Of a DNA stretch of 64,000 nucleotides, positions 8,699 to 61,586 are shown piece after piece. Position 1 is the first letter of the stretch. Every line of letters begins with the position of its first letter. The position numbers and the translations under genes are program-made. The stretch spans positions 1,719,596 through 1,783,595 of the forward strand of contig OY729416.1 of NCBI GenBank assembly GCA_963422265.1, written 5' to 3'. Below the pieces are notes generated by a model that did not search any database, was not told where the DNA came from, and saw only the letters and a program-made list of their open reading frames with translations. The stretch comes from Thermodesulfobacteriota bacterium (GTDB lineage: Bacteria > Desulfobacterota_D > UBA1144 > Nemesobacterales > UBA2774).

Positions 8699-9690
8699 CT
8701 GGATTCCTACTCGGAGGCGGGAATGATGAAAACACCCTCACCCTGTACCCCTCTCCCAGAGGAGGGAGAGGGGGAAAAGACTAGGTTTCTCAGTTGTGCT
8801 TTGTCGTTAGGCAAGCTCAGGAGTTAGAAAGGATATTCCCCTCCTTTTGTAAAGGCAAAGAAAAGGGTAACCACAAGGGTTACCCCTACAAGTTAAGGAA
8901 TCCAAAGGGGGTGGGGGTAGGTAAGCAAGGAAGGAATTCGTGTTCCTCGACGCCTATCAAATCCCCCTGTATCCCCCTTTTCTAAAGGGGGAGAAGGAGA
9001 TATTCCCCTCCTTTCGTAAAGGAGGGTTAGGGTGGATTTGCTTTGTGTTTGTAGGGGCGCGCCGCCTAGCGATGTCCTGATCGTGCTGAAGGATGGTTGT
9101 TCCAAGTCGTGAAGGTGATGGGTAACCACAAGGGTTACCTCTACGAAAGGAAGGGTGGGGTGAGAATTCATACCGCTCTGTCCGTCATTCCTGCGGAAAC
9201 ATCTCTCTGTGTATATTGCTAAGTAGGGAGATGGGGGATAAGGAATGTTTTCGTTCCCCGATGCCTATCAAATCCCCCTGTATCCCCCTTTTCTAAAGGG
9301 GGAGAAGGAGAAATTCCCCTCCTTTTGTAAAGGAGGGATAGGGTGGATTTTCTTTGTGTCTGTAGGGGCGCGCCGCCTAGCGATGTCCTGAGTGGTCAGT
9401 GTGTCATCCTGAGTTTACCGAAGGTAGCATAGCCGAACTGCCTGCCGAAGGACGATGTGCTGAGCTTGTTGAAGGGTGGTCGCCCTAAGGTAAAGATAAG
9501 GGTAATCATGCATATCCCCAACTTGATTGAGGAACTGTATTCCCGCTCGGGGGCGGGAATGATGAAAACTCCCTCACCCTGTGTCCCTATCCCAGGGGGA
9601 GAGGGGGCAAACGAGATTTCTCGGTTGCGCTTTGCTCTTCTTCGGTAGGCTCAGGATATCCTTGCTCCCCTTTCTGGATTACGGAGAATA
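8699..9690 (+). repeat. Composite palindromic repeat cluster
   Basis: Same modules; long stretches are reverse complements of 2640-2950 and 22860-23240. Confidence 0.9.
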
Positions 9691-37106: not shown

Positions 37107-38501
37107 ATGTACGGAAAAATTAAGAATATTCACTTTGTGGGAATTGGCGGAATCGGCATGAGCGGTATTGCTGAGGTGCTTCTTAACATGGGTTATTCAG
37201 TGACGGGCTCGGATATCGGGCGATCGGCCACGGTTAACAGGCTTGAGGCTCTGGGTGCAAAGATAAATATCGGTCACAAGGTAGAGAATGTCAATGGAGC
37301 GGATGTGGTTGTTACCTCTTCAGCGATTAAGGCTGATAATTCTGAGGTTGAGCAAGCTAATAACCTGGGCGTTCCCGTTATTCCAAGGGCTGAGATGCTG
37401 GCGGAGTTAATGAGGATCAGGTATGGCGTAGCCGTTGCGGGAAGCCATGGCAAAACAACGGTGACGTCTATGATAGGGATTGTACTTTCACACGGGGGGC
37501 TGGACCCTACGATAGTAGTCGGTGGCAGGGTGCGGACTATGGGAACCAACGCGCGTTTGGGCAAGGGTGATTTCATGGTAGTCGAGGCTGACGAGAGCGA
37601 TGGTTCGTTTCTGCTTCTCTCTCCTGTTATATCTGTGCTTACAAACGTAGATCAAGAGCATATGGATCACTACGAAAGTATGAGCCGACTGGAGGATGCG
37701 TTTTACCGCTTCGTGGGAAAGATACCTTTTTACGGGCTCGCGGTTCTGTGTGCTGATTGTCCACGCGTAAAGGATATGGCGAGCAGGTTTAGTAAAAGGG
37801 GCTTAACTTATGGTTTTGACCAAGACGCCGATCTGTGCGCTCGCGACGTCGTAGCATCAGGTTTTCAGATAGCCTCTGAGCAGTTTTATAAGGGCGCCGA
37901 GTTCAACGTTGTCTATAAAGGCTCTTTGCTTGGCAGGTTGTTTCTTAGGGTGCCAGGTAGGCATAATGCCCAAAACGCGCTTGCGGCGGTCGCCGTGGGC
38001 ATGGAGCTTGGGATGAGCTTTGAATCCGTAAAACAGGGACTGATGGAGTTTAGAGGAATAGACAGAAGGCTGCAGGTAAAAGGAGCCCTAAGAAACGTGC
38101 TCGTTATGGATGATTATGCCCATCACCCGCAGGAAATAAGGGTTACTATCAATACCCTGAAGGAGTCTCAAGCGGGCAGGATCGTAGCGATATTCCAACC
38201 ACACCGCTATAGCAGGACAAAACTTCTATTTGATGAATTCAAAGAAGTGCTTATCAATACAGACGTCCTTTTCTTGATGGATATATACCCAGCGGGAGAA
38301 GAACCCGTAAGCGGCGTGTCGTCTGAAAAGCTGTGCGGTGCTATTAGAAGGGCAGGTCATAAAAACGTCTTTTACTTAGATGACGAGGGGAAAGGGACAG
38401 ACGCGGTAATTGAAGCTCTGGAGCCTGGCGACGTGGTGATTACACTCGGAGCGGGCAATGTATGGGCGTTTGGGGAAAGAATAGTAAAGGAGCTTGAGTG
38501 A
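37107..38501 (+). CDS. murC: UDP-MurNAc-L-Ala ligase
   Basis: GIGGIGMSGIA, GSHGKTT, EADESD, DDYAHHP, FQPHRYSR. Confidence 0.98.
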   Translation: MYGKIKNIHFVGIGGIGMSGIAEVLLNMGYSVTGSDIGRSATVNRLEALGAKINIGHKVENVNGADVVVTSSAIKADNSEVEQANNLGVPVIPRAEMLAELMRIRYGVAVAGSHGKTTVTSMIGIVLSHGGLDPTIVVGGRVRTMGTNARLGKGDFMVVEADESDGSFLLLSPVISVLTNVDQEHMDHYESMSRLEDAFYRFVGKIPFYGLAVLCADCPRVKDMASRFSKRGLTYGFDQDADLCARDVVASGFQIASEQFYKGAEFNVVYKGSLLGRLFLRVPGRHNAQNALAAVAVGMELGMSFESVKQGLMEFRGIDRRLQVKGALRNVLVMDDYAHHPQEIRVTINTLKESQAGRIVAIFQPHRYSRTKLLFDEFKEVLINTDVLFLMDIYPAGEEPVSGVSSEKLCGAIRRAGHKNVFYLDDEGKGTDAVIEALEPGDVVITLGAGNVWAFGERIVKELE

Positions 38502-42864: not shown

Positions 42865-43360
42865 GTAGGGGATCACGTTTCCCTGACTCCCTGGTTGGTG
42901 GGTCTGCCGAACCCATTTCTGGCTTCCCGATAGAATTGGGAATAACTGGGGGTGTGGTGTAGGGGCGACCCTTGTAGTCGCCCTAAGGTGTGGAGGTGAG
43001 TGTAACCACAAGGGTTACTCCTACGAAAAGATGGAGAGGGTGATGTGGGAGTATAAGGATGATTGATCTTCCCTGATGTTCTATCAAATCCCCCTATATC
43101 CCCCTTTACTAAAGGGGGAATGTGTGAGGAAGGGATCACGTTTCCCTGACTCCCTGGTTGGTGGGTCTGCCGAACCCATTTCTGGATTCCCAGTTCCCCG
43201 CTCAAAGGACTACGGGGACAGGTGGCGGCGGGAATGATGGAAGCTCCCTCACCGCATGTCCCCAGCTTGATTGGGGAAGAGTTACCTCTAAAAAAGATGG
43301 GAGAGGGGGAAAGGACGTCTGAATTTGTGATTTGTAGGGTTGAATGATGGGCTGTGATTT
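42865..43360 (+). repeat. Composite repeat cluster after ftsZ
   Basis: REP-like pair, hairpin modules, nested inserts. Confidence 0.88.
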
Positions 43361-43413
43361 GGGTAGTATTATAGTATTTAAAGGAACATATAATACGAAG
43401 AAAGGAGGATATT

Positions 43414-43884
43414 ATGTATGATGAGAAGTATAGTAGTAAGGGATTTTACCCCGCCCCGAAATTTAGCCTATTAAGCGCGTTAGTGCTTGTATTAGTTAGT
43501 TTTATGATTGTTGGTGGTTGTGGGGGGAGTAGTTCAGGTAGCAGCGAGGATAATAATACCACTACCTGTGGGGACATAGACTTGGCGGACTTACACGGGG
43601 AAAATGGTAGGTCTTGGAAATGTGACAACAATGAATTTCTATTTCGATCTCTCTACTTTTATAAGTCTGAGGGTGAAGGCTGGAAAACTTTTAAGGGATT
43701 CACGCAAGACGAAACCACCTTGAGTGGAGAAGTTACACTAGAGAATTGTAATCTCTATGTTTTTGTGTGGGATGAAGGGGAAGATGACTGGGAAGCGGAG
43801 ATACTACCTCTTAATGCTAAAAAAATGGTTCTGATAGATAAGGTTAAGAAGACAAGAGCGATTTGCTCATATGGTGGGCAATGA
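43414..43884 (+). CDS. Lipoprotein family paralog 1 (no stalk)
   Basis: AAGGAGG RBS; signal peptide ending MIVGG-C; shared Cys-patterned C-terminal domain. Confidence 0.85.
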   Translation: MYDEKYSSKGFYPAPKFSLLSALVLVLVSFMIVGGCGGSSSGSSEDNNTTTCGDIDLADLHGENGRSWKCDNNEFLFRSLYFYKSEGEGWKTFKGFTQDETTLSGEVTLENCNLYVFVWDEGEDDWEAEILPLNAKKMVLIDKVKKTRAICSYGGQ

Positions 43885-44082
43885 TTGGGAGGAGAAAGAA
43901 CAAATCCCCCTATATCCCCCTTTTCTAAAGGGGGAATGTGTGAGGAAGGGATCACGTTTCCCTACTCCCTGGTTGGTGAGCCTGCCGAGGGTAACTTGTT
44001 GAAGGGTGGTCGCCCTAAGGTGTAGAGGTGAGTGTAACCACAAGTGTAACCACGCATGTCCCCAATCAGGATTGGAGATTAG

Positions 44083-44110
44083 TTGACGAAGACATCGCTC
44101 TTATTATAAT
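44083..44110 (+). promoter_or_regulatory. Putative sigma70 promoter
   Basis: TTGACG-16 nt-TATAAT upstream of the 44173 ORF. Confidence 0.55.
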
Positions 44111-44172
44111 AACTTACGGGTATGTAGGCAGGCGTAAAGCGATGTGATAGATACGTTATAGCTTAGACAGAT

Positions 44173-44607
44173 ATGAATAGCGGGAGGCGTTACATGGATA
44201 AATATAGAGTAGGAATATCCAGCACAGCGATATCAATAGGGGTAACCATATTATTGGCACTTTCTCAGTTTTGTCCACTTAACGCGTATGCGGAATCAGT
44301 AATAGAGAATAAGAAGGATATAGAGTATATCAAGGAAAATGTTAGAAAGATTGAGGACAGTATTGGGACAATACAAAGAGACATATCTGACATTAAAGCA
44401 GGACAAGCGAGCAGACAAACGACGTTGCATATAGGCATTGCGATAGCAGCTATGTTTGCCGCTCTGCTTGGATGGGTAATAAAGCAGCTTTTTGATATAT
44501 CTAAAACAGTCAGCATGCTTCTTGGAAGCAAGAAATCTACAGCAACCGACAGGGCAATGTATAATGAGCAACTACCTAAAGGGTTTGTGAGTCCTAAAAG
44601 AAACTAA
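44173..44607 (+). CDS. Small coiled-coil membrane protein
   Basis: Signal-like N-terminus (AYA), heptad coiled coil, TM helix. Confidence 0.7.
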   Translation: MNSGRRYMDKYRVGISSTAISIGVTILLALSQFCPLNAYAESVIENKKDIEYIKENVRKIEDSIGTIQRDISDIKAGQASRQTTLHIGIAIAAMFAALLGWVIKQLFDISKTVSMLLGSKKSTATDRAMYNEQLPKGFVSPKRN

Positions 44608-44669
44608 CAACGGCGGCATACCGCAACGCAAAAGAAGGAGATATAAGTATTAAGCCATGTTCTCCTCGA

Positions 44670-45260
44670 GGGGGGAATAACTGAGGGTTGATCTTCCCTG
44701 ATGTTCTATCAAATCCCCCTATATCCCCCTTTTCTAAAGGGGGAATGTATGAGGAAGGGTTCACGTTTCCCTGACTCCCTGTTTGGTGGGACTGCCGAGG
44801 AGAACTTGTTGAAGGGGGGGCACAAGGAAAGGAAGAATTTTCGTTCCCCAATACCCTATCAAATCCCCCTTGTATCCCCCTTTTCTAAAGGGGGAGAAGA
44901 AGAAATTCCCCTCCTTTTGTAAAGGAGGGAAAGGGTGGATTTTCTTTTTGTTTGTAGGGGTGGTGCTAGCGATGTCCTGAGCGTGCCGAAGTGTGGTCTT
45001 CTCGCCCGAAGGCGTGAAGGTGATAGGTAAACACAAGGGTTACACCTACGAAATGATGGTGTAGGTGATGTGGGAGTATAAGGGATGATTGATCTTCCCT
45101 GATGTTCTATCAAATCCCCCTATATCCCCCTTTTCTAAAGGGGGATTATGTGAGGAAGAAGTCACCCTTCCCCAATACCCTCTCTGGATTCCCAGTTCCC
45201 CGCTCAAAAGCATGTTCCTGCATATATTAAGCAGGAAACTACGGGGGCAGGAATGACGGA
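44670..45260 (+). repeat. Composite repeat cluster
   Basis: Three CCCCCTTTTCTAAAGGGGG hairpins plus nested elements. Confidence 0.88.
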
Positions 45261-45319
45261 TGGATCATAGTTCAGGGTTGCATTTGATTCTTCGTTACGC
45301 TACATTTACAATCCTTGTT

Positions 45320-47314
45320 ATGAGAAAACATCGTCCTTTTTCTTACTTATCTCAATTAGTCCACAGACTCCGTTCACTAACTACCTTAGCTATTGTTTTT
45401 ATAGTTTTGTTTTTCTTCCCTTTCTTCTGCGTGCCTGTGGTGCCAGTAGCGCAATCGGAGGAAGGGCAACCCCCACGCGTTCGATGGGTGGAGATTGGTT
45501 CTGATTCTATAAAGGAGTTGCCCAAGAAGGGGCGGGACGCTAACGACAATCCTAAGGTGGATGATAGTCTGGAAGAGGTGATAGAATCACTTTCGGATAG
45601 GGTCGTCAGTGAGTCGGAGGCTAAGGGAGAGGGAAGCGCCAGAGAATCAGAAGCGGAAGGTGTTCTAAATCCTGTGGATTTATCCACTTCCTTTGTTAAG
45701 GTGGACAGTTCGTCAAGGATTCAGGTGTATGTTTATTGCAATGAAATTAGCGAGGGCAACCTAAAGAAGTTATCTGAACTGGGTTTTGAGAAAGAAATTA
45801 TTGACGAAGAGTATAGGATTATTCAAGGGTGGATTCCTTATGACAAGATAGAGCAAGTGGCTAAGCTAGACTTCGTGAAAGAGATAACCCCTCCAAGTTA
45901 TGGGACTACGAACGCAGGCAGTGTTACTACCAATGGGGACGAGTTCTTAGGGGCGAAGGATGTGAGGAGGGATCTTAGGGTTGACGGGAAGGGGGTTAAG
46001 ATAGGGGTCATCTCTGACGGCGTTCGGACTTTAAGAGACTCTAAGCGGAGCGGTGATTTACCTAATGAAGTTGAAATAGGTTATGTTGAGAATTGCCGGA
46101 ATGCACAAACAAGTTGTAACGAAGGCACAGCGATGCTTGAAATAGTGCACGACATAGCACCTGGGGCTCAGCTTGGTTTTTACTATGGTTTTACCACAGT
46201 GGCCTTTAAGGAGGGGGTGGATTACTTTCGTAAGAATCGCTACGACATAATAGTTGATGACATATTGTTCTTCCTCGAGCCTTATTTTGAGGATGGACCC
46301 GTGGCGAGAAAGGCAAAGCAGGCGGTGGACGAGGGGATCATATTCGTTTCTGCGGCGGGTAATATGGCGAAGAGGCACTATCAAGCTCCTTATAATCATG
46401 CCAATGGATACCATGATTTCGACTCAGGGGCGAGCGGTACAGATGTGCATTTAAGCATAGATTTTAAAAGTGGTACTAGATGCAAATTGTATGTTCAGGC
46501 TATAGATTCTGCTGGTAAAATTTCTTCCGAAAAATTAGAGATAACGAGAGAAGAGAATTTTATACACATTCACGGTGAAGGCAAGAATTTAAAGGAGATT
46601 GAGATTCTTGTTAGTAAAGGCTGTGAACTTGAGGGGAAGTATGCCACTCCGGGAGACTCAATAGTCGGACATGCGGCGGTGCCGGGGGTGATAGCCGTGG
46701 GCGCCGTGGATGAGAATAGAAAGGTGAGAGATTACAGTTCAAGGGGACCCTCGTCCATCATTAATGGGCAGGGGGGGGTTGAAAGGCGTCCTAAGCCTGA
46801 CGTGATGGCTCTTGATGGGGTTGAAACTAGCGCGAAGGGTTTCGAATCTTTTAAGGGTACGTCGGCTGCCGCGCCTCACGTAGCGGGCATAGTGGCTCTT
46901 ATGATACAGGGTTATAACAGGCGTGCGAAGGAAGCGGGGATAGAAGAGGTGGATAAGTTAGAGCGGGCAAAGCAGATAACCGACATCCTAAAGTGCACGG
47001 CGGGTTCAGGTAATTGTAAGGGACATAACAATACGTATGGTTACGGCATAGTGAATGCGCAGCGCGGGTCGGTTCAGCAAGCTATCTCTGCGGGGGAAAG
47101 TGCTAAGGCAGCACCGCCGCCAGTGACGGATGGTGGTAGCGGTGGTGGTGGGTGCTCACTTTGGGGCGAGGCTAAAAACGCGCAAAGCGGTATTATAGAT
47201 ATTCTAATGACGTTTGCGCCGCTCTTTATTCTAATACTGATTTGTTTTATACGTAGGGGTGGTGCTAGGCGATGTCCTGAGCGTGCCGAAGGGTGGTCTC
47301 GCCCTAAGGCGTGA
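45320..47314 (+). CDS. Secreted S8/S53-like serine protease with C-terminal GC-TM-basic tail
   Basis: GV.IGVISDG, EGTAMLEIVHDIAPG, SAAGN, GTSAAAPH; GGSGGGGCSL...TM...RR. Confidence 0.88.
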   Translation: MRKHRPFSYLSQLVHRLRSLTTLAIVFIVLFFFPFFCVPVVPVAQSEEGQPPRVRWVEIGSDSIKELPKKGRDANDNPKVDDSLEEVIESLSDRVVSESEAKGEGSARESEAEGVLNPVDLSTSFVKVDSSSRIQVYVYCNEISEGNLKKLSELGFEKEIIDEEYRIIQGWIPYDKIEQVAKLDFVKEITPPSYGTTNAGSVTTNGDEFLGAKDVRRDLRVDGKGVKIGVISDGVRTLRDSKRSGDLPNEVEIGYVENCRNAQTSCNEGTAMLEIVHDIAPGAQLGFYYGFTTVAFKEGVDYFRKNRYDIIVDDILFFLEPYFEDGPVARKAKQAVDEGIIFVSAAGNMAKRHYQAPYNHANGYHDFDSGASGTDVHLSIDFKSGTRCKLYVQAIDSAGKISSEKLEITREENFIHIHGEGKNLKEIEILVSKGCELEGKYATPGDSIVGHAAVPGVIAVGAVDENRKVRDYSSRGPSSIINGQGGVERRPKPDVMALDGVETSAKGFESFKGTSAAAPHVAGIVALMIQGYNRRAKEAGIEEVDKLERAKQITDILKCTAGSGNCKGHNNTYGYGIVNAQRGSVQQAISAGESAKAAPPPVTDGGSGGGGCSLWGEAKNAQSGIIDILMTFAPLFILILICFIRRGGARRCPERAEGWSRPKA

Positions 47315-47750
47315 AGGCGAGGGTAACCACAAGGGGATTACCCCTACGAAATGATGGTGTGGGTGATGTGGGAGTATAAGGGATGATTGATCTTCCCTGA
47401 TGTTCTATCAAATCCCCCTGTATCCCCCTTTTCTAAAGGGGGAGAAGAAGAAATTTCCCTCCTTTTGTAAAGGAGGGTTAGGGTGGATTTTCTTTTTGTT
47501 TGTAGGGGCGACCCTTGTAGTCGCCCTAAGGCGTGAAGGCGAGGGTAACCACAAGGGGATTACCCCTACGAAATGATGGTGTGGGTGATGTGGGAGTATA
47601 AGGGAGGATTGATCTTCCCTGATGTTCTATCAAATCCCCCTGTATCCCCCTTTTCTAAAGGGGGAGAAGAAGAAATTTCCCTCCTTTTGTAAAGGAGGGT
47701 TAGGGTGGATTTTCTTTTTGTTTGTAGGGGCGACCCTTGTGGTCGCCCTA
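47250..47750 (+). repeat. Repeat cluster with ~223-bp tandem duplication
   Basis: GCCCTAAGGCGTGAAGGCGAGGGTAACC at 47301 and 47524. Confidence 0.9.
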
Positions 47751-47833
47751 AGAGTTGACAAAACCAAAGAAAATTGGTAATTTGGAAGAGAGTAATATAT
47801 CCAAGTCGTTAAAAGTTGCACGTGAGGGTTAGC

Positions 47834-48067
47834 ATGGAAGTCCAAGTAGCTACCAAATCTTATATAGAACGTTTGGATAAAGATATTGCGGCTGTCCGCG
47901 CGGACGTTAAAGAGCTTGCTAAGGGGCAGATTGAAATAAGGGAGGGTTTAGCAGAAATAAAGGGTATGCTGAGTTTTGCTAAACCAGTAATGATGGCAAT
48001 AATTATTTTGATTGCATCTGTATTTGTTAGGTATGTAATAAAGGATATTGTTTCGTTCTTTAGCTAG
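47834..48067 (+). CDS. Small coiled-coil plus C-terminal TM protein (DUF1640/XhlA-like architecture)
   Basis: VATK...DI..VR.DV..L heptads, then hydrophobic helix; GAGG RBS; TTGACA-17-TAATTT at 47755. Confidence 0.7.
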   Translation: MEVQVATKSYIERLDKDIAAVRADVKELAKGQIEIREGLAEIKGMLSFAKPVMMAIIILIASVFVRYVIKDIVSFFS

Positions 48068-48325
48068 GGAGAAGATTGGGTTCCCGCTCGGGACCCTGTC
48101 CTGAGCCTGTCGAAACAGGGAGAGTGTAACCACAAGGGTTACACCTACAAAATGGGTGTCAAGGTTAACCACGCATGTCCCCAGCTTGATTGGGGAAGAG
48201 TTACTTCTACAAAAAGATGGGAGAGGGAGGTCTGAACTAGGATTTTTAGGATTGAATGAGAGGCTATGATTTGGGCAGTATTAGAGTATTTAAAGGAACA
48301 TATAATACGAAGAAAGGAGGGTATT

Positions 48326-49138
48326 ATGTATGATGAGAAGTATAGTAGTAAGAGACTTTACCCCACCCCAAAATTTAGCCTGTTAAGCGCGTTAGTGCTG
48401 GTATTAGTTAGTTTTATGATTGTTGGTGGTGGTTGTGGAGGTGGTGGGGGTAGTTCAGGTAGCAGCGAGGATAATAATACTCCCAAGTCCACTCAGGTGA
48501 TGGAACCCAATGATTATAATGCCGATGAGATTGCTGGACTAAAAACGGAGGTGGCAGAATTGGAGGCAGAGGTGGCAGAATGGAAGGTAAAGGCAGAGGC
48601 AGAAAAGCCATGTCCTACGTGTCCTACCAAAACGTGCCCTACTAAAACTTGCCCTACTACAACTTACCCTACCAGAATTTGCCCTACATGCCCCATTTGC
48701 CCTAGTTATACTAGGCCGCCCGCGTGCCTTAGTGGTACTGAGCTAGATAATAAGACTCCCGATGAACTTCCCTCGTATCCTCCTCACGATTACGGTACCT
48801 GTGAGAATAGGAGCATAGCCGAGGCGGAATTACACGGGAATTTTTTTAGGTCTTGGTCATGCAACAACAATGAATTTCTAGATCTCCGATTTTATAATCC
48901 TGATGAGTGGCGTAAAGATAAAGGCTTTAAAACTTTTTCGGGATACACGCAAGGCTTCTCTGCTCACTGCACCTTGAATGGAGACCATACATATACACCA
49001 AAGAATTGTAATCTCTCTGTTGATGTGTGGAAGGAAGGGGTAGATAACTGGGAAGCGGAGGTACTATCTCTTAATGCTCACAACATGGTTCTGATAGATA
49101 AGGATACGAATACAATAGAGCATTGCTATCAGAATTAG
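48326..49138 (+). CDS. Lipoprotein family paralog 2 (coiled coil plus Cys-Pro-Thr repeat stalk)
   Basis: Same RBS and signal peptide as 43414; CPTCPTKTCPTKTCPT repeats; shared C-terminal domain. Confidence 0.85.
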   Translation: MYDEKYSSKRLYPTPKFSLLSALVLVLVSFMIVGGGCGGGGGSSGSSEDNNTPKSTQVMEPNDYNADEIAGLKTEVAELEAEVAEWKVKAEAEKPCPTCPTKTCPTKTCPTTTYPTRICPTCPICPSYTRPPACLSGTELDNKTPDELPSYPPHDYGTCENRSIAEAELHGNFFRSWSCNNNEFLDLRFYNPDEWRKDKGFKTFSGYTQGFSAHCTLNGDHTYTPKNCNLSVDVWKEGVDNWEAEVLSLNAHNMVLIDKDTNTIEHCYQN

Positions 49139-49493
49139 ATGAGGGGCTATGATTGGAAGGATAAGGAACAAATCCCCCTGTATCCCCCTTTTCTAAAGGG
49201 GGAGAAGATGAGGAAGAACCCTCACCCTGCGTCCCTCTCCCAGAGGGGGAAAGGATGTCTGATTTGTAGGATTGAGTGAGGGGTTATGATGGAAAGGATA
49301 AGGAACAAATCCCCCTGTGTCCTCCTTTTCTAAAGGGGGAGAAGATAAGGGAGTTCCTCACCCCGACCCTCTCCCAGGGGGAGAAGGGGAAAGGGCGTCT
49401 GAATTTGTGATTTGTAGGATTGAGTGAGGGGCTGTGATTTGGGTAGTATTAGAGTATTTAAAGGAACATATAATACGAAGAAAGGAGGATATT

Positions 49494-50114
49494 ATGTATG
49501 ATGAGAAGTATAGTAGTAAGGGATTTTACCCCACCCCGAAATTTAGCCTATTAAGCGCGTTAGTGCTGGTATTAGTTAGTTTTATGATTGTTGGTGGTTG
49601 TGGAGGTGGGGGGAGTAGTTCAGATGGCATCGAGGATAATAATACTCCCAAGCCTACTACGGCGGATGATACTAAGCTAGAGAAAAGTCCCACTCCGGCG
49701 GCGGATGAGACTAATCTAGATGATAAGATTTCCGATGAACTTCCTCCCTCGGATCCTACTCGCTCTTACGGCACCTGTGATGAAAGGAGCATAAACTTGG
49801 CGCACTTACGCGGGAAAGGGAAAGGTTATAAGCCTTGGAAATGTGACAACAGTGAATTTCTATCTCTCAGATTTTATGATTCTGCTGAGTGGGGTGAACG
49901 CAATAGAACTTTTATCGCACTCGAGCAAGATCAAACCAAATTGTATGGATACTTTACACTAAAGAATTGTAATCTCTCTGTTGATTTTTGGGATGAAGGG
50001 GTAGATGACTGGGAAGCGGAGATACTATCTCTTGATGCTCAAAAAATGGTTCTGATGTATAAGGGTACGGATAAAATAGAGCATTGCTCATCAGGATTGA
50101 ATGATGGGCAATGA
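49494..50114 (+). CDS. Lipoprotein family paralog 3 (Pro/Thr/acidic stalk)
   Basis: Same RBS and signal peptide; shared C-terminal domain. Confidence 0.85.
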   Translation: MYDEKYSSKGFYPTPKFSLLSALVLVLVSFMIVGGCGGGGSSSDGIEDNNTPKPTTADDTKLEKSPTPAADETNLDDKISDELPPSDPTRSYGTCDERSINLAHLRGKGKGYKPWKCDNSEFLSLRFYDSAEWGERNRTFIALEQDQTKLYGYFTLKNCNLSVDFWDEGVDDWEAEILSLDAQKMVLMYKGTDKIEHCSSGLNDGQ

Positions 50115-50690
50115 TTGGGAGGAGAAAGAACAAATCCCCCTGTATCTCCCTTTTCTAAAGGGGGAGAAGATGAGGAAGTACTCTCACCCTGCGTCCTTCT
50201 CCCTCTGGGAGAGGGGGATACAGGGCGTCTGAATTTGTGATTTGTAGGATTGAATGGTGGGCTGTGATTTGGAGGAGAAAGATCAAATCCCCCTAAATCC
50301 CCCTTTTCTAAAGGGGGAATGTGTGAGGAAGGGTTCACGTTTGCCTACTCCCTGGTTGGTGAGCCTGCCGGACCATTTCTGGATTCCCGATAGAATTGGG
50401 AATAACTGGGGTGTGGTGTAGGGGCGACCCTTGTAGTCGTCCAAAGGCGTGAGGGCAATGGGTAACTACAAGGATTTACCCCTACGAAAAGATGGTGTGG
50501 GTAGGAATCCAGAGGGTGTGAGAGATAAGGGATGATTGATCTTCCCTGATGTTCTATCAAATCCCCCTAAATCCCCCTTTTCTAAAGGGGGAATGTGTGC
50601 GGAAGGGTTCACATTCCTCGTTCCCCTCAAAATGGGTGTCAAGGTTAACCACGCATGTCCCCAGCTTGATTGGGGAAGGGTTACCTCTAC
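50095..50690 (+). repeat. Composite repeat cluster
   Basis: Same modules; similar blocks at 48070-48270 and 49140-49440. Confidence 0.88.
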
Positions 50691-51899: not shown

Positions 51900-52350
51900 A
51901 GGTAACCAATGTGGCTACCCTCTTTCAACAAGTTCCCTTCGGCAGGCTCACCAACCAGGGAGTAGGGAAACGTGAACCCTTCCTCACACAATCCCCCTTT
52001 AGAAAAGGGGGATACAGGGGGATTTGATAGAACATAAGGGAAGATCAATCATCCCTTATCTCCCCATACCCTCTGGATTCCTACCCTCTCCATCTTTTCG
52101 TAGAGGTAACCCTTGTGGTTACCCATTGCCCTCACGCCTTTGGGCGACTACAAGGGTCGCCCCTACAAACAAAAAGAAAACCCACCCTAACCCTCCTTTA
52201 CAAAAGGAGGGAAATATCCTTTACTATCCTCTGAGCTTGCCGAAGCATAGTCGCCCATCCGTGTAATAAACTCCCCGTCATTCCCACCCTTGCCTGTTCC
52301 CGTGATCTCCTGCTTAATACGTGCAGGGAAGTGCTCTCGCAGGAAGAATG
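51900..52350 (-). repeat. Composite repeat cluster (reverse orientation)
   Basis: Reverse complement of the 50340-50620 type block. Confidence 0.88.
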
Positions 52351-60187: not shown

Positions 60188-61586
60188 GTGAAATCGAATG
60201 CGAACCTAATCAAAATTGGGTTGATAGGAGCTGGCACCGTAGGATGCGGCGTGATAAAGCTCCTTAGCCGAAATAAGGGCATTATTGAAAAGAGGACCGG
60301 AGTCCGACTCGATCTAAAGAGAATTGCCGATAATGACCTTGAGAGAAAAAGACCTGTAAGGCTTCCTAAAGACAGGATTACTACCGATGCGTTTGAGGTT
60401 ATTCGTGATGAATCAATAGACATAGTGGTAGAGCTTGTAGGGGGGACGACCGTAGCAAGGGATTTCGTCATGGCAGCCATAGATAACGGTAAGCACGTCG
60501 TAACGGCGAATAAAGCCCTTATCGCCCACCATGGCAGAGAAATATTCCAGAGCGCCTTGCAAAAAGGAGTTAGCGTTGGCTTTGAAGCCAGCGTAGGGGG
60601 TGGAATTCCGATAATACGCGCGATGAGGGATGGATACGTCGGAAATAAAGTGCTGTCTATCCATGGAATAATGAATGGCACTTCTAACTACGTATTATCC
60701 AGAATGACTGAGCGGATGGCTTCCGCAAACGCACAAAGCAGGGCACGGGCATCGTCTCGGATTACGCGAGGAGGAGAAAAGTCGGAATTTGAAGAGGTCT
60801 TAAAAGAGGCGCAGCGCAAGGGATACGCCGAAGCCGATCCTTCGTTTGATATCGACGGCGTTGACTCGGCTCATAAACTCTCGATAATGATAATGCTTTC
60901 GTTTGGCGTCTTTCTAGCGTTTGAAGATATTCACGTAGAGGGAATACGTGGGATTACGCCGCTGGACGTTGCGTTTGCCGATGAGCTTGGCTATAGGATA
61001 AAGCTCTTGGCGACCGCAAAGGCTAAGGATAGCGTTCACCCCACGGACAAAGAGGCTTTTGGATAACGTTCCCGAGAGTATAGAAGCCGGCGTATATCCA
61101 ACGTTAATAAAAAAGGGAACGTCGCTCGCCGATGTTTCAGGAGCCTTCAATGCGATTTACCTAGTTGGGGACGCAATTGGTCCGACAATGCTCTATGGTC
61201 TGGGGGCGGGTATGATGCCGACGGCAAGCGCCGTCGTTAGCGATATATCGCGTATCTCCTCTCTATACGATCCAGCTCCAAGGCTACACGTGGACTTCAC
61301 GTCATCTCCGCTAATTAAAATGAGCGAAACGTCTAACAAATACTACTTAAAATTCAATGCTCACGACCGCCCAGGCGTGTTGGGAAAAATCACAGGCAGG
61401 CTGGGTAGGCATGGGATCAGCATCGAGTCGGTGATACAAAAGGGGAGGCATCCCGAAGGTGGTGAGTCCCAATTGTCATTATGACTCACGAGGCTCAAGA
61501 AAAGAAGCTATTATCTGCTCTCGAGCAGATAGATAAATTCCCGGATGTAAGCGCAAATCAACGTTTATAAGAATCGGGAGATTTAA
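60188..61586 (+). CDS. hom: Homoserine dehydrogenase with ACT domain (apparent frameshifts, likely read errors)
   Basis: GAGTVG, TANKA, FEASVGGGIP, NGTSNY, GYAEADP; continues in the next frame with GAG..PTASAV and DRPGVL. Confidence 0.9.

Follow-up and report, generated by a model that had tools for sequence, protein, structure and literature searches.

Palindromic repeats of the REP (repetitive extragenic palindromic) type occur across bacterial phyla, and their origin and movement are largely unsolved. The genome of a small uncultured Thermodesulfobacteriota bacterium, one contig of 1.78 Mb with 44% G+C and 99.4% completeness, raises this problem at a very small scale: within its final 64 kb, which were analysed as a whole and are called the window here, the stretch from 43.2 to 50.7 kb carries hairpins of 23 and 27 nt that lie inside other hairpins, together with empty copies of the same outer hairpins. 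Were these short hairpins inserted as discrete pieces, did this happen more than once, and what could have moved them? A sequence-only reading of this DNA had proposed ultra-short mobile hairpins that target existing hairpins, moved by a mechanism of the HUH type. We find that the nesting is real and well defined and that the intergenic DNA of the stretch is a mosaic of REP-type palindromic repeats. We are fairly confident that the two inner units, A and B, were inserted as discrete pieces, and we hold with moderate confidence that they entered host REPs repeatedly and that blocks containing them were copied afterwards; an enzyme acting in trans may have been responsible for their entry.

Units A and B and their host repeats

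Unit A is 23 nt long and consists of a GCATGT head followed by the hairpin CCCCAG-CTTGA-TTGGGG (reference copy 48173-48195); unit B is 27 nt long, with the same head followed by the hairpin TCCTGC-ATATATTAA-GCAGGA (reference copy 45210-45236). The hairpins that hold them are known kinds of short palindromic repeats, namely GTAG-tagged REPs and CGTC-tagged REPs in the sense of Di Nocera, De Gregorio, and Rocco (2013; PMC3733652). The units and hosts of the window are arranged as follows.

43184-43237, minus strand: CGTC-type REP, GGATTCC .. GGGAATGA, holding the empty inner hairpin CCCCGCTCAAAGGACTACGGGG at 43196-43217.
43254-43276, plus strand: unit A with 0 mismatches, followed only by a GTAG-REP right arm (AAGAGTTACCTCTAA); its right flank is common with the 48173 copy.
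44054-44077, plus strand: diverged A variant GCATGTCCCCAATCAGGATTGGAG, following the left arm GTAACCAC.
45186-45257, minus strand: three-layer nest, an outer CGTC-type REP (GGATTCC .. GGAATGAC) around an inner CCCCG..CGGGG hairpin around unit B.
45210-45236, plus strand: reference copy of unit B, 27 nt, innermost layer of the nest.
47299-47742, plus strand: two tandem 222-nt mosaic blocks, 99% identical, composed of GTAG REPs and other hairpin modules.
48126-48148, minus strand: empty GTAG REP, GTAACCAC^AAGGGTTACACCTAC, the reverse complement of which is GTAG + GTGTAACC CTTGT GGTTAC.
48165-48210, minus strand: filled GTAG-type REP with degenerate arms, TTAACCAC and AAGAGTTACTTCTAC, around unit A at 48173-48195 on the plus strand.
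50645-50690, minus strand: another GTAG-type REP filled by A (50653-50675); on the left it has the flank of the 48165 copy (97% identity).
52308-52334, minus strand: diverged unit B with 5 mismatches, placed between CCTGCGAGA and GATCACGGGAACAGG with GGGAATGA beyond.
9362-9485, plus strand: GTAG-type REP, TAGGGGCG .. GGTCGCCC, with three tandem GTCCTGAGC..GAAGG modules in its loop and 107 nt between the arms.
9510-9532, plus strand: unit A copy with 3 mismatches, following the left arm GGGTAATCAT; the right arm is absent.

These features bear out what the sequence-only reading had reported: the empty and filled hosts at 48126-48148 and 48165-48210, the inserts at 43254-43276 and 50653-50675, and the variant from 44054 lie where it placed them, as do the empty inner hairpin at 43196-43217 and its counterpart filled with the 27-nt unit between GGATTCC (45186) and GGAATGAC (45257). 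The inverted relative of that unit is present at 52308-52334, and the nesting of one module in another (its modules G and C) corresponds to the three tandem inserts at 9362-9485.

Genome-wide, a Hamming scan for unit A returned 13 matches at up to five mismatches, of which eight have three or fewer, and one for unit B returned 15 at up to seven mismatches, of which eight have five or fewer; by arithmetic, about 0.003 (A) and 0.004 (B) matches are expected by chance at the stricter limits and about 0.5 at the loose ones. A blastn-short search added further diverged and shortened copies. The head by itself defines nothing, as the hexamer GCATGT is not enriched (15 observed against 14.3 expected). 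The sequence-only reading had also treated GCATGT-headed hairpins as a general class, and this did not survive comparison: GCATGT followed by any hairpin occurs at 21 sites, against 3-21 for six control heads. The real entities are families A and B only, which make up a third, smaller class next to the two kinds of REP. Neither carries the terminal GTAG or CGTC tag, their heads in this genome being GCATGT or GCACGT, and one change in the stem is compensated (TCCCAA/TTGGGA). They are also distinct from miniature inverted-repeat transposable elements (MITEs), as each is a single hairpin with an unpaired head and is not accompanied by a target-site duplication. The strand tally of A relative to replication (8 plus and 3 minus copies on one replichore, 2 plus and 2 minus on the other) was discarded as uninformative because duplicates are counted in.

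The GTAG REP is the reverse complement of a host 25-mer, GTAG-GGGTAACC-CTTGT-GGTTACCC, which has 61 copies in the genome at up to three mismatches, against none for a reversed control pattern. It shows the unpaired tag, the stem of 6-9 bp, the short loop, the many dispersed intergenic copies, and the inverted dimers that characterize such REPs; an inverted partner, TAGGGGCGACCCTTGTGGTCGCCC, with a stem altered on both sides (CGACC/GGTCG), frequently accompanies it, and the same pairing is present in metagenome contigs. The remaining characteristic, a cognate RAYT (REP-associated tyrosine transposase, Y1) gene, is missing, as PF01797 has no match in the complete genome; such genes may be absent from some species (PMC3733652). 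The 25-mer reaches well outside this lineage, occurring exactly in at least 129 metagenome stretches, usually next to inverted partners with other stems, and in 0 of the 30 nearest genomes. Its copies in this genome lie mostly within about 300 kb that contain the window (1.64-1.78 Mb plus 0-0.14 Mb), on one side of the GC-skew minimum.

The GGATTCC..GGAATGAC hairpin reads CGTC-ATTCC(T/C)GC-loop-GC(A/G)GGAAT-CCA on the opposite strand, and the form found here, CGTC-ATTCCTGC-GAAA-GCAGGAAT-CTA/CCA, has the CGTC tag, a stem of 8-9 bp starting AT, a loop of 4-5 nt, and a CCA-like tail. In our census, two doubtful rows included, loops of 4 nt account for 12 such REPs and loops of 5 and 6 nt for 15 each. 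CGTC REPs are described as having no dedicated transposase (PMC3733652). A 26-mer of the 5-nt-loop form is exact at at least 119 loci of species-level genomes, whose carriers, among the matches listed, belong by title to many phyla, from Patescibacteria to Pedobacter isolates. Free CGTC REPs were also considered as nested elements; of 120, 4 lie between bracketing arms of at least 6 bp, compared with 3% in controls, and they are therefore not nested. The units themselves appear to be related to these repeats. Because the 15-nt core of A (CCCAACTTGATTGGG) is identical to the centre of the 5-nt-loop CGTC REP (CGTC-ATTCCCAA-CTTGA-TTGGGAAT) and the stem of B is that of the 4-nt-loop CGTC REP, A and B look like shortened, re-headed derivatives of CGTC REPs.

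In this genome A and B are found mainly as inserts in the loops of other REPs. In the GTAG REP, A sits in the loop between CCAC and AAG; about six copies have both arms and about eight have one arm or remnants, compared with the 61 empty 25-mers. In 4-nt-loop CGTC REPs, B sits at GAAA^GCAG (5 filled, 12 empty), always head-first on the strand that carries the CGTC tag (5/5). B also fills the CCCCG..CGGGG inner hairpin, where three copies are filled and three are empty, the three empty ones all lying within the same outer repeat, and here it is on the opposite strand of the outer repeat in 3/3 cases. A third kind of filling concerns the GTCCTGAGC..GAAGG modules: 55 GTAG-type hairpins have the normal 8 nt between arms and about 10 hold one to three modules. 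Finally, an A hairpin without its head lies inside a copy of B at genome position 139201. The insert boundaries are exact and recurrent, insertion is mostly beside the 3' arm within the loop, and at no filled host is there a target duplication: the joined flanks of filled copies equal the empty sequence, and no duplication had been obvious to the sequence-only reading either. The bases to the left of the insert vary here and in other genomes (CCAC, CCAT, GAAA, GAGA, TAAA, TTGA, GGGG). Relative to the genes of the window, position and orientation of the units are not constant.

Insertion, copying and spread

One alternative is that all filled copies go back to one insertion, which was then multiplied along with its host. 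The duplicated surroundings of many copies, and the single orientation and common derived flank bases of A in GTAG REPs, speak for this alternative. The three identical A copies of the window (43254, 48173, 50653) form a chain of common flanks, the first two having the same right flank and the last two the same left flank, and B at 38147, 42549, and 46091 is found within duplicated blocks; the 99% identity of the two 222-nt tandem blocks shows that whole mosaic blocks get copied. Among GTAG REPs, the right arm AAGAG is present in 4 of 10 filled copies and in about 3 of the 61 that are empty, CAT stands directly before the insert in three filled copies and is found in no empty one, and every A has one orientation. 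All of this weighs against independence, and because of the single orientation and the common derived flank bases the GTAG-REP set of A may go back to a small number of events. On the other side, B occupies two host types in opposite orientations and therefore entered in separate events, A occurs outside GTAG REPs, including inside B, and the hosts of A differ in other phyla. Because these independent contexts exist, a single copied insertion is already contradicted and we regard it as highly improbable. Both independent insertion and passive copying occur. Of the sequence-only claim that mobile hairpins target hairpins, the part that stands is discrete insertion into loops at more than one independent site, and the part that needs correction is the independence of the window copies, most of which are not independent; its further condition, that not all filled copies should come from one duplicated event, is borne out by B in two hosts and by A in different hosts here and in 13 other genomes.

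Closely related strains could in principle provide empty alleles at orthologous positions. Parts of the stretch are held by seven public sequencing runs from four studies, and in four runs every contig that covers one of the sites at 48173 and 50653 (A) or 45210 (B) carries the unit. No orthologous empty allele was found in these contigs, which counts against insertion, but the contigs break at repeats and so say little on empty alleles. In practical terms, hairpin nests of this kind disrupt short-read assemblies and give rise to spurious gene calls. In one run (X1) a related strain differs in its mosaic on the left side of A at 50653: position 47748 is joined to 50649 through 25 other letters, and 2.9 kb with two small paralogues are absent. 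A search of metagenome contigs for close strains by way of the neighbouring S8-peptidase protein matched no relative, and relatives from the genome collection share only about 70% identity, with the host 25-mer in 0 of 30.

The wider distribution of A comes from a search of other species-level genomes. Exact matches to the 23-mer pattern GCMTGYCCCCAACTTGATTGGGG lie at 10 loci in seven of them, with about 0.07 expected by chance, and the headless 20-mer is found at 23 loci in 13, with about 2 expected. By title the carriers of the 20-mer represent Zixiibacteriota, Eubacteriales, Schekmanbacteria, Poribacteria, three Pseudomonadota, four Bacteroidota, and two unclassified genomes, that is, at least six named phyla. 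The three bases before the 20-mer, which were left free in the search, begin GC in 24 of 33 contexts and AC in 5 of 33, and the heads elsewhere include GCCTGC, GCTTGT, and ACTTGT. Copy number is patchy, from 1 to 13 per genome, and the flanks vary between genomes. Empty and filled hosts occur together again: a metagenome-assembled genome (MAG) labelled Eubacteriales, G031, carries a 24-mer repeat that is empty in 39 copies and filled at about eight loci, some with two to four tandem A copies, and two further genomes (G036 and G037) each have an empty copy of the same host as the filled one. G036 also shows compensated changes in the stem (CCCCGA/TCGGGG and CAG/CTG). Schekmanbacteria and Poribacteria once more have the GGATTCC..GGAATGAC repeat as host.

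Clear single insertions into a loop, with the unit against the 3' arm, include TGCCC-GAGA^GGGCA, CCCGCATT-GA^AATGCGGG, GACC-TAAA^GGTC, and TTCCCA-GGAAAA^TGGGAA. As a general rule for other genomes, insertion into loops fares less well. The insert is enclosed by a perfect inverted repeat of at least 5 bp in 7 of 31 contexts, compared with 12% of flank-swapped controls, and a folding-based measure is positive in 15 of 31, against 37% in controls; since both measures separate poorly from their controls, the loop rule outside this genome rests on single cases and not on statistics. Unit B was found in no other genome searched, which also counts against the insertion account. Viral contigs yielded no match to unit A, and plasmid and phage records yielded none to tandem A, under an E-value limit too strict for a match of 23 nt.

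Two explanations without mobile units have to be weighed against this distribution. The first holds that the units are loop variants produced by replication slippage or template switching and spread by recombination, gene conversion, and block duplication. It fits the near-identical tandem blocks, the three A copies with common flanks, the differing mosaic of run X1, and the reuse of stems and loops of resident CGTC REPs by A and B; it would account for hybrid junctions such as that at genome position 686235, where half of B is joined to A plus a REP arm, and for a genome that lacks transposases of the four families tested. What it leaves unexplained are the exact and recurrent insert boundaries and the presence of the 23-mer, head included, amid unrelated flanks in 13 other genomes of several phyla, which could not have been produced by local slippage. 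We consider it unlikely, though the likeliest of the rivals.

The second holds that the unit is a functional site, bound by a protein or acting as an RNA structure, that is kept by selection, the outer stems being part of a larger fold. Cross-phylum identity that is extreme for non-coding DNA, the exact 26-mer of the CGTC REP in many phyla, of which the core of A is a part, and the compensated stem changes all suit such a function. The low and patchy copy number, the tandem arrays of two to four copies, the inconstant placement relative to the window genes, and the many empty hosts in the same genomes, which function without the unit, do not. Nor does any Rfam family match the unit: over the window Rfam reports tRNA only, and its weak Acido-Lenti-1 matches near one foreign copy lie off the unit. 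An origin of A from the CGTC-REP core would, moreover, explain its conservation across phyla without a separate function, and we think selection for a functional site improbable.

Our preferred account, held with moderate confidence, is insertion of discrete units. The units entered host hairpins as discrete pieces, in the loop and mostly beside the 3' arm, without duplicating the target; such entry took place several times and in several phyla, and most copies of the window then spread passively through block duplication or recombination. The lack of duplication, the exact ends, the REP-like build of head plus hairpin, and insertion sites that are single-stranded once the host hairpin extrudes all fit cut-and-paste of single-stranded hairpin DNA, as the sequence-only reading had proposed. 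We infer that a trans-acting enzyme that processes single-stranded REP hairpins could cut and rejoin them without duplication.

Candidate enzymes and genomic setting

The leading candidate for such an enzyme would be a Y1 HUH transposase of the RAYT-like kind. That a REP-processing enzyme of this sort moved the units in trans is possible, and we put it forward tentatively, on evidence that is thin and circumstantial. Y1_Tnp (PF01797) has no match in this genome, which is a single nearly complete contig, and IS110, TnpB, and rve have none either; a tblastn search of the genome with a foreign Y1 protein returned BamA only. The only reverse transcriptase in the genome is a defence enzyme of the AbiP2 type. 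It has 504 aa (L218:871-2385, genome about 1,037,700-1,039,200, minus strand), matches the AbiP2 model over its full length with an E-value of 8.5e-200, and its gene adjoins one with weak PIN-like / PDC-S34 similarity. No gene flanked by the unit hairpin as its own end was found; the sequence-only reading had named a nuclease gene so flanked as a thing to look for. Because there is no Y1 gene in this genome, its copies are most likely relics that spread with their host blocks, or are moved by another factor yet to be recognised.

Outside this genome, one locus connects A with a Y1 gene physically. In G031 a Y1_Tnp gene for a protein of 196 aa (L143:873-1463, Pfam E-value 4e-18) lies between inverted GGGGACGTTCCCCAAAGTGCCACCCTA repeats, of which the right-hand one is interrupted by two A copies in tandem. 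These end repeats lie at L143:749-781 and 1462-1540, and their 24-mer core has 39 further copies, many of them in close inverted pairs; it is a repeat family like REPINs (REP doublets forming hairpins) or like the terminal inverted repeat (TIR) families, or TIRtrons, of Di Nocera 2013. The other 20 foreign Y1 loci have no A beside the gene, and in one of them a palindromic A-like hairpin lies 500 nt off. Across all 21 loci, A forms the end of the gene in none and interrupts an end repeat in one. Y1 genes are present in all 10 of the tested A-bearing genomes, but they are also present in 21 of 25 relatives of one A-bearing genome (and in 10 of 30 relatives of the genome studied here), and the co-occurrence of Y1 with A is therefore no association. 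A Y1 subfamily specific to A-bearers was also considered and dropped, as relatives of the G031 protein (34-42% identity) occur in genomes not known to hold A. With no Y1 gene here, and with A never the own terminal hairpin of a Y1 gene, the unit does not qualify as an element mobilised in the manner of IS200/IS605 or by a RAYT. The HUH mechanism proposed from the sequence alone is not supported in this genome, and its one physical link is A within the terminal repeat of one foreign Y1 gene.

A bolder reading of the same observations would make the 23-nt GCNTGY-headed hairpin a mobile unit in its own right with horizontal spread, a parasite of parasites that arose from the CGTC-REP core and inserts into single-stranded loops or ends of the hairpins of REPs, REPINs, and transposase end repeats. 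We see it as a speculative possibility that is worth stating; if true, the unit would be among the smallest mobile units known, riding on any hairpin-processing enzyme in many phyla.

The setting of these repeats is core chromosome. The genes of the window include mraZ to ftsZ, parAB, a cysteine-desulfurase-like gene, and others, with no transposase among them, and the 43.2-50.7 kb stretch adjoins the dcw/fts cell-division cluster, being bounded by ftsZ and the desulfurase gene. Besides long intergenic mosaics of short repeats it contains an S8 peptidase gene and paralogous small lipoprotein-like genes. Three of the latter (43414-43884, 48266-49138, and 49434-50114) have a common signal- or lipoprotein-like start and a common upstream repeat block and match no Pfam family, and the gene at 48266 contains four overlapping copies of a repeat of about 30 nt at 15-nt spacing (48617-48691). 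Homoserine dehydrogenase is split into two overlapping frames, 60188-61063 and 61059-61481, which both match PF00742; the split is a frameshift, either genuine or from assembly. The GC-skew minimum near 1.60 Mb is likely the replication origin, and with the maximum near 0.50 Mb the replichores look unequal. Overlapping 11-mers with about 60 copies, which we take to be a single repeat (GTTTCAATCCCTTATAGGTAGTCAAA), point to a CRISPR array, and a poly-C 11-mer with 220 counts derives from C/G runs of 11 or more.

Comparison with known systems

The mosaics of GTAG and CGTC REPs are comparable to the BIMEs (bacterial interspersed mosaic elements) of E. coli and to the dRS3 repeats and NIMEs (Neisseria intergenic mosaic elements) of Neisseria. 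The hosts agree with published GTAG and CGTC REPs in tag, 8-bp stem, loop of 4 to 6 nt, CCA tail, and inverted dimers, and REPs inside small palindromes, as well as REP variants whose loops have a self-complementary interior of up to 27 bp, have been described (PMC3733652), so that nested REPs as such are already partly in print. Units A and B differ from them in lacking either tag, in their GCATGT or GCNTGY head, their 6-bp stems, and their length of 23 to 27 nt, in occurring mainly as inserts in REP loops, and in that A, as an insert, is letter-identical in different phyla.

The SDRs (small dispersed repeats) that Elhai et al. reportedly described in 2008 from Nostoc and relatives are said to be dispersed, intergenic repeats of 21-27 nt inserted precisely into other repeats or palindromes; we know of no enzyme for them and, to our knowledge, they have been described only from cyanobacteria. 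Compared by description only, A and B resemble SDRs in size (23 and 27 nt), exact boundaries, and matching empty hosts, and they differ in that the hosts are REPs and that unit A crosses phyla. A later account by Elhai places SDR5 inside the HIP1 palindrome, exactly between its third and fourth bases (PMC4390886). REPINs are doublets of about 100 nt that are each linked to a RAYT gene of their own genome (Bertels and Rainey 2011; PMC3116915). The combination of tag and hairpin, the inverted doublets of host REPs, the absence of target duplication, and the host repeat flanking the Y1 gene in G031 are REPIN-like features, whereas this genome has no RAYT and A and B are single units inside REPs and not doublets. 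Insertion sequences with a preference for REPs offer a last parallel: IS1397 is said to insert into BIME palindromic units, and Tobes and Pareja reportedly found insertion sequences targeting REP palindromes in 2006. These too have REP hairpins as preferred targets, but they are about 1 kb or more and bring their own transposase, in contrast to units of 23-27 nt.

Against this background, four points are new: the GCNTGY-headed class, the letter-perfect insert across phyla, the derivation from the CGTC-REP core, and the presence of the unit in the end repeat of a Y1 gene. None of the four was found in a limited search of the literature by topic words and by core sequence, the supplements of Di Nocera 2013 and the text of Elhai 2008 lying outside that search, and the core of A in either orientation had no match in the literature texts searched by sequence. 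The empty and filled pairs, with their hosts and orientations and the Y1-end case, constitute a set of substrates for testing whether hairpin-processing enzymes can paste 23 nt, and such pasting into hairpin loops would explain how BIME- and NIME-like mosaics build up layer by layer.

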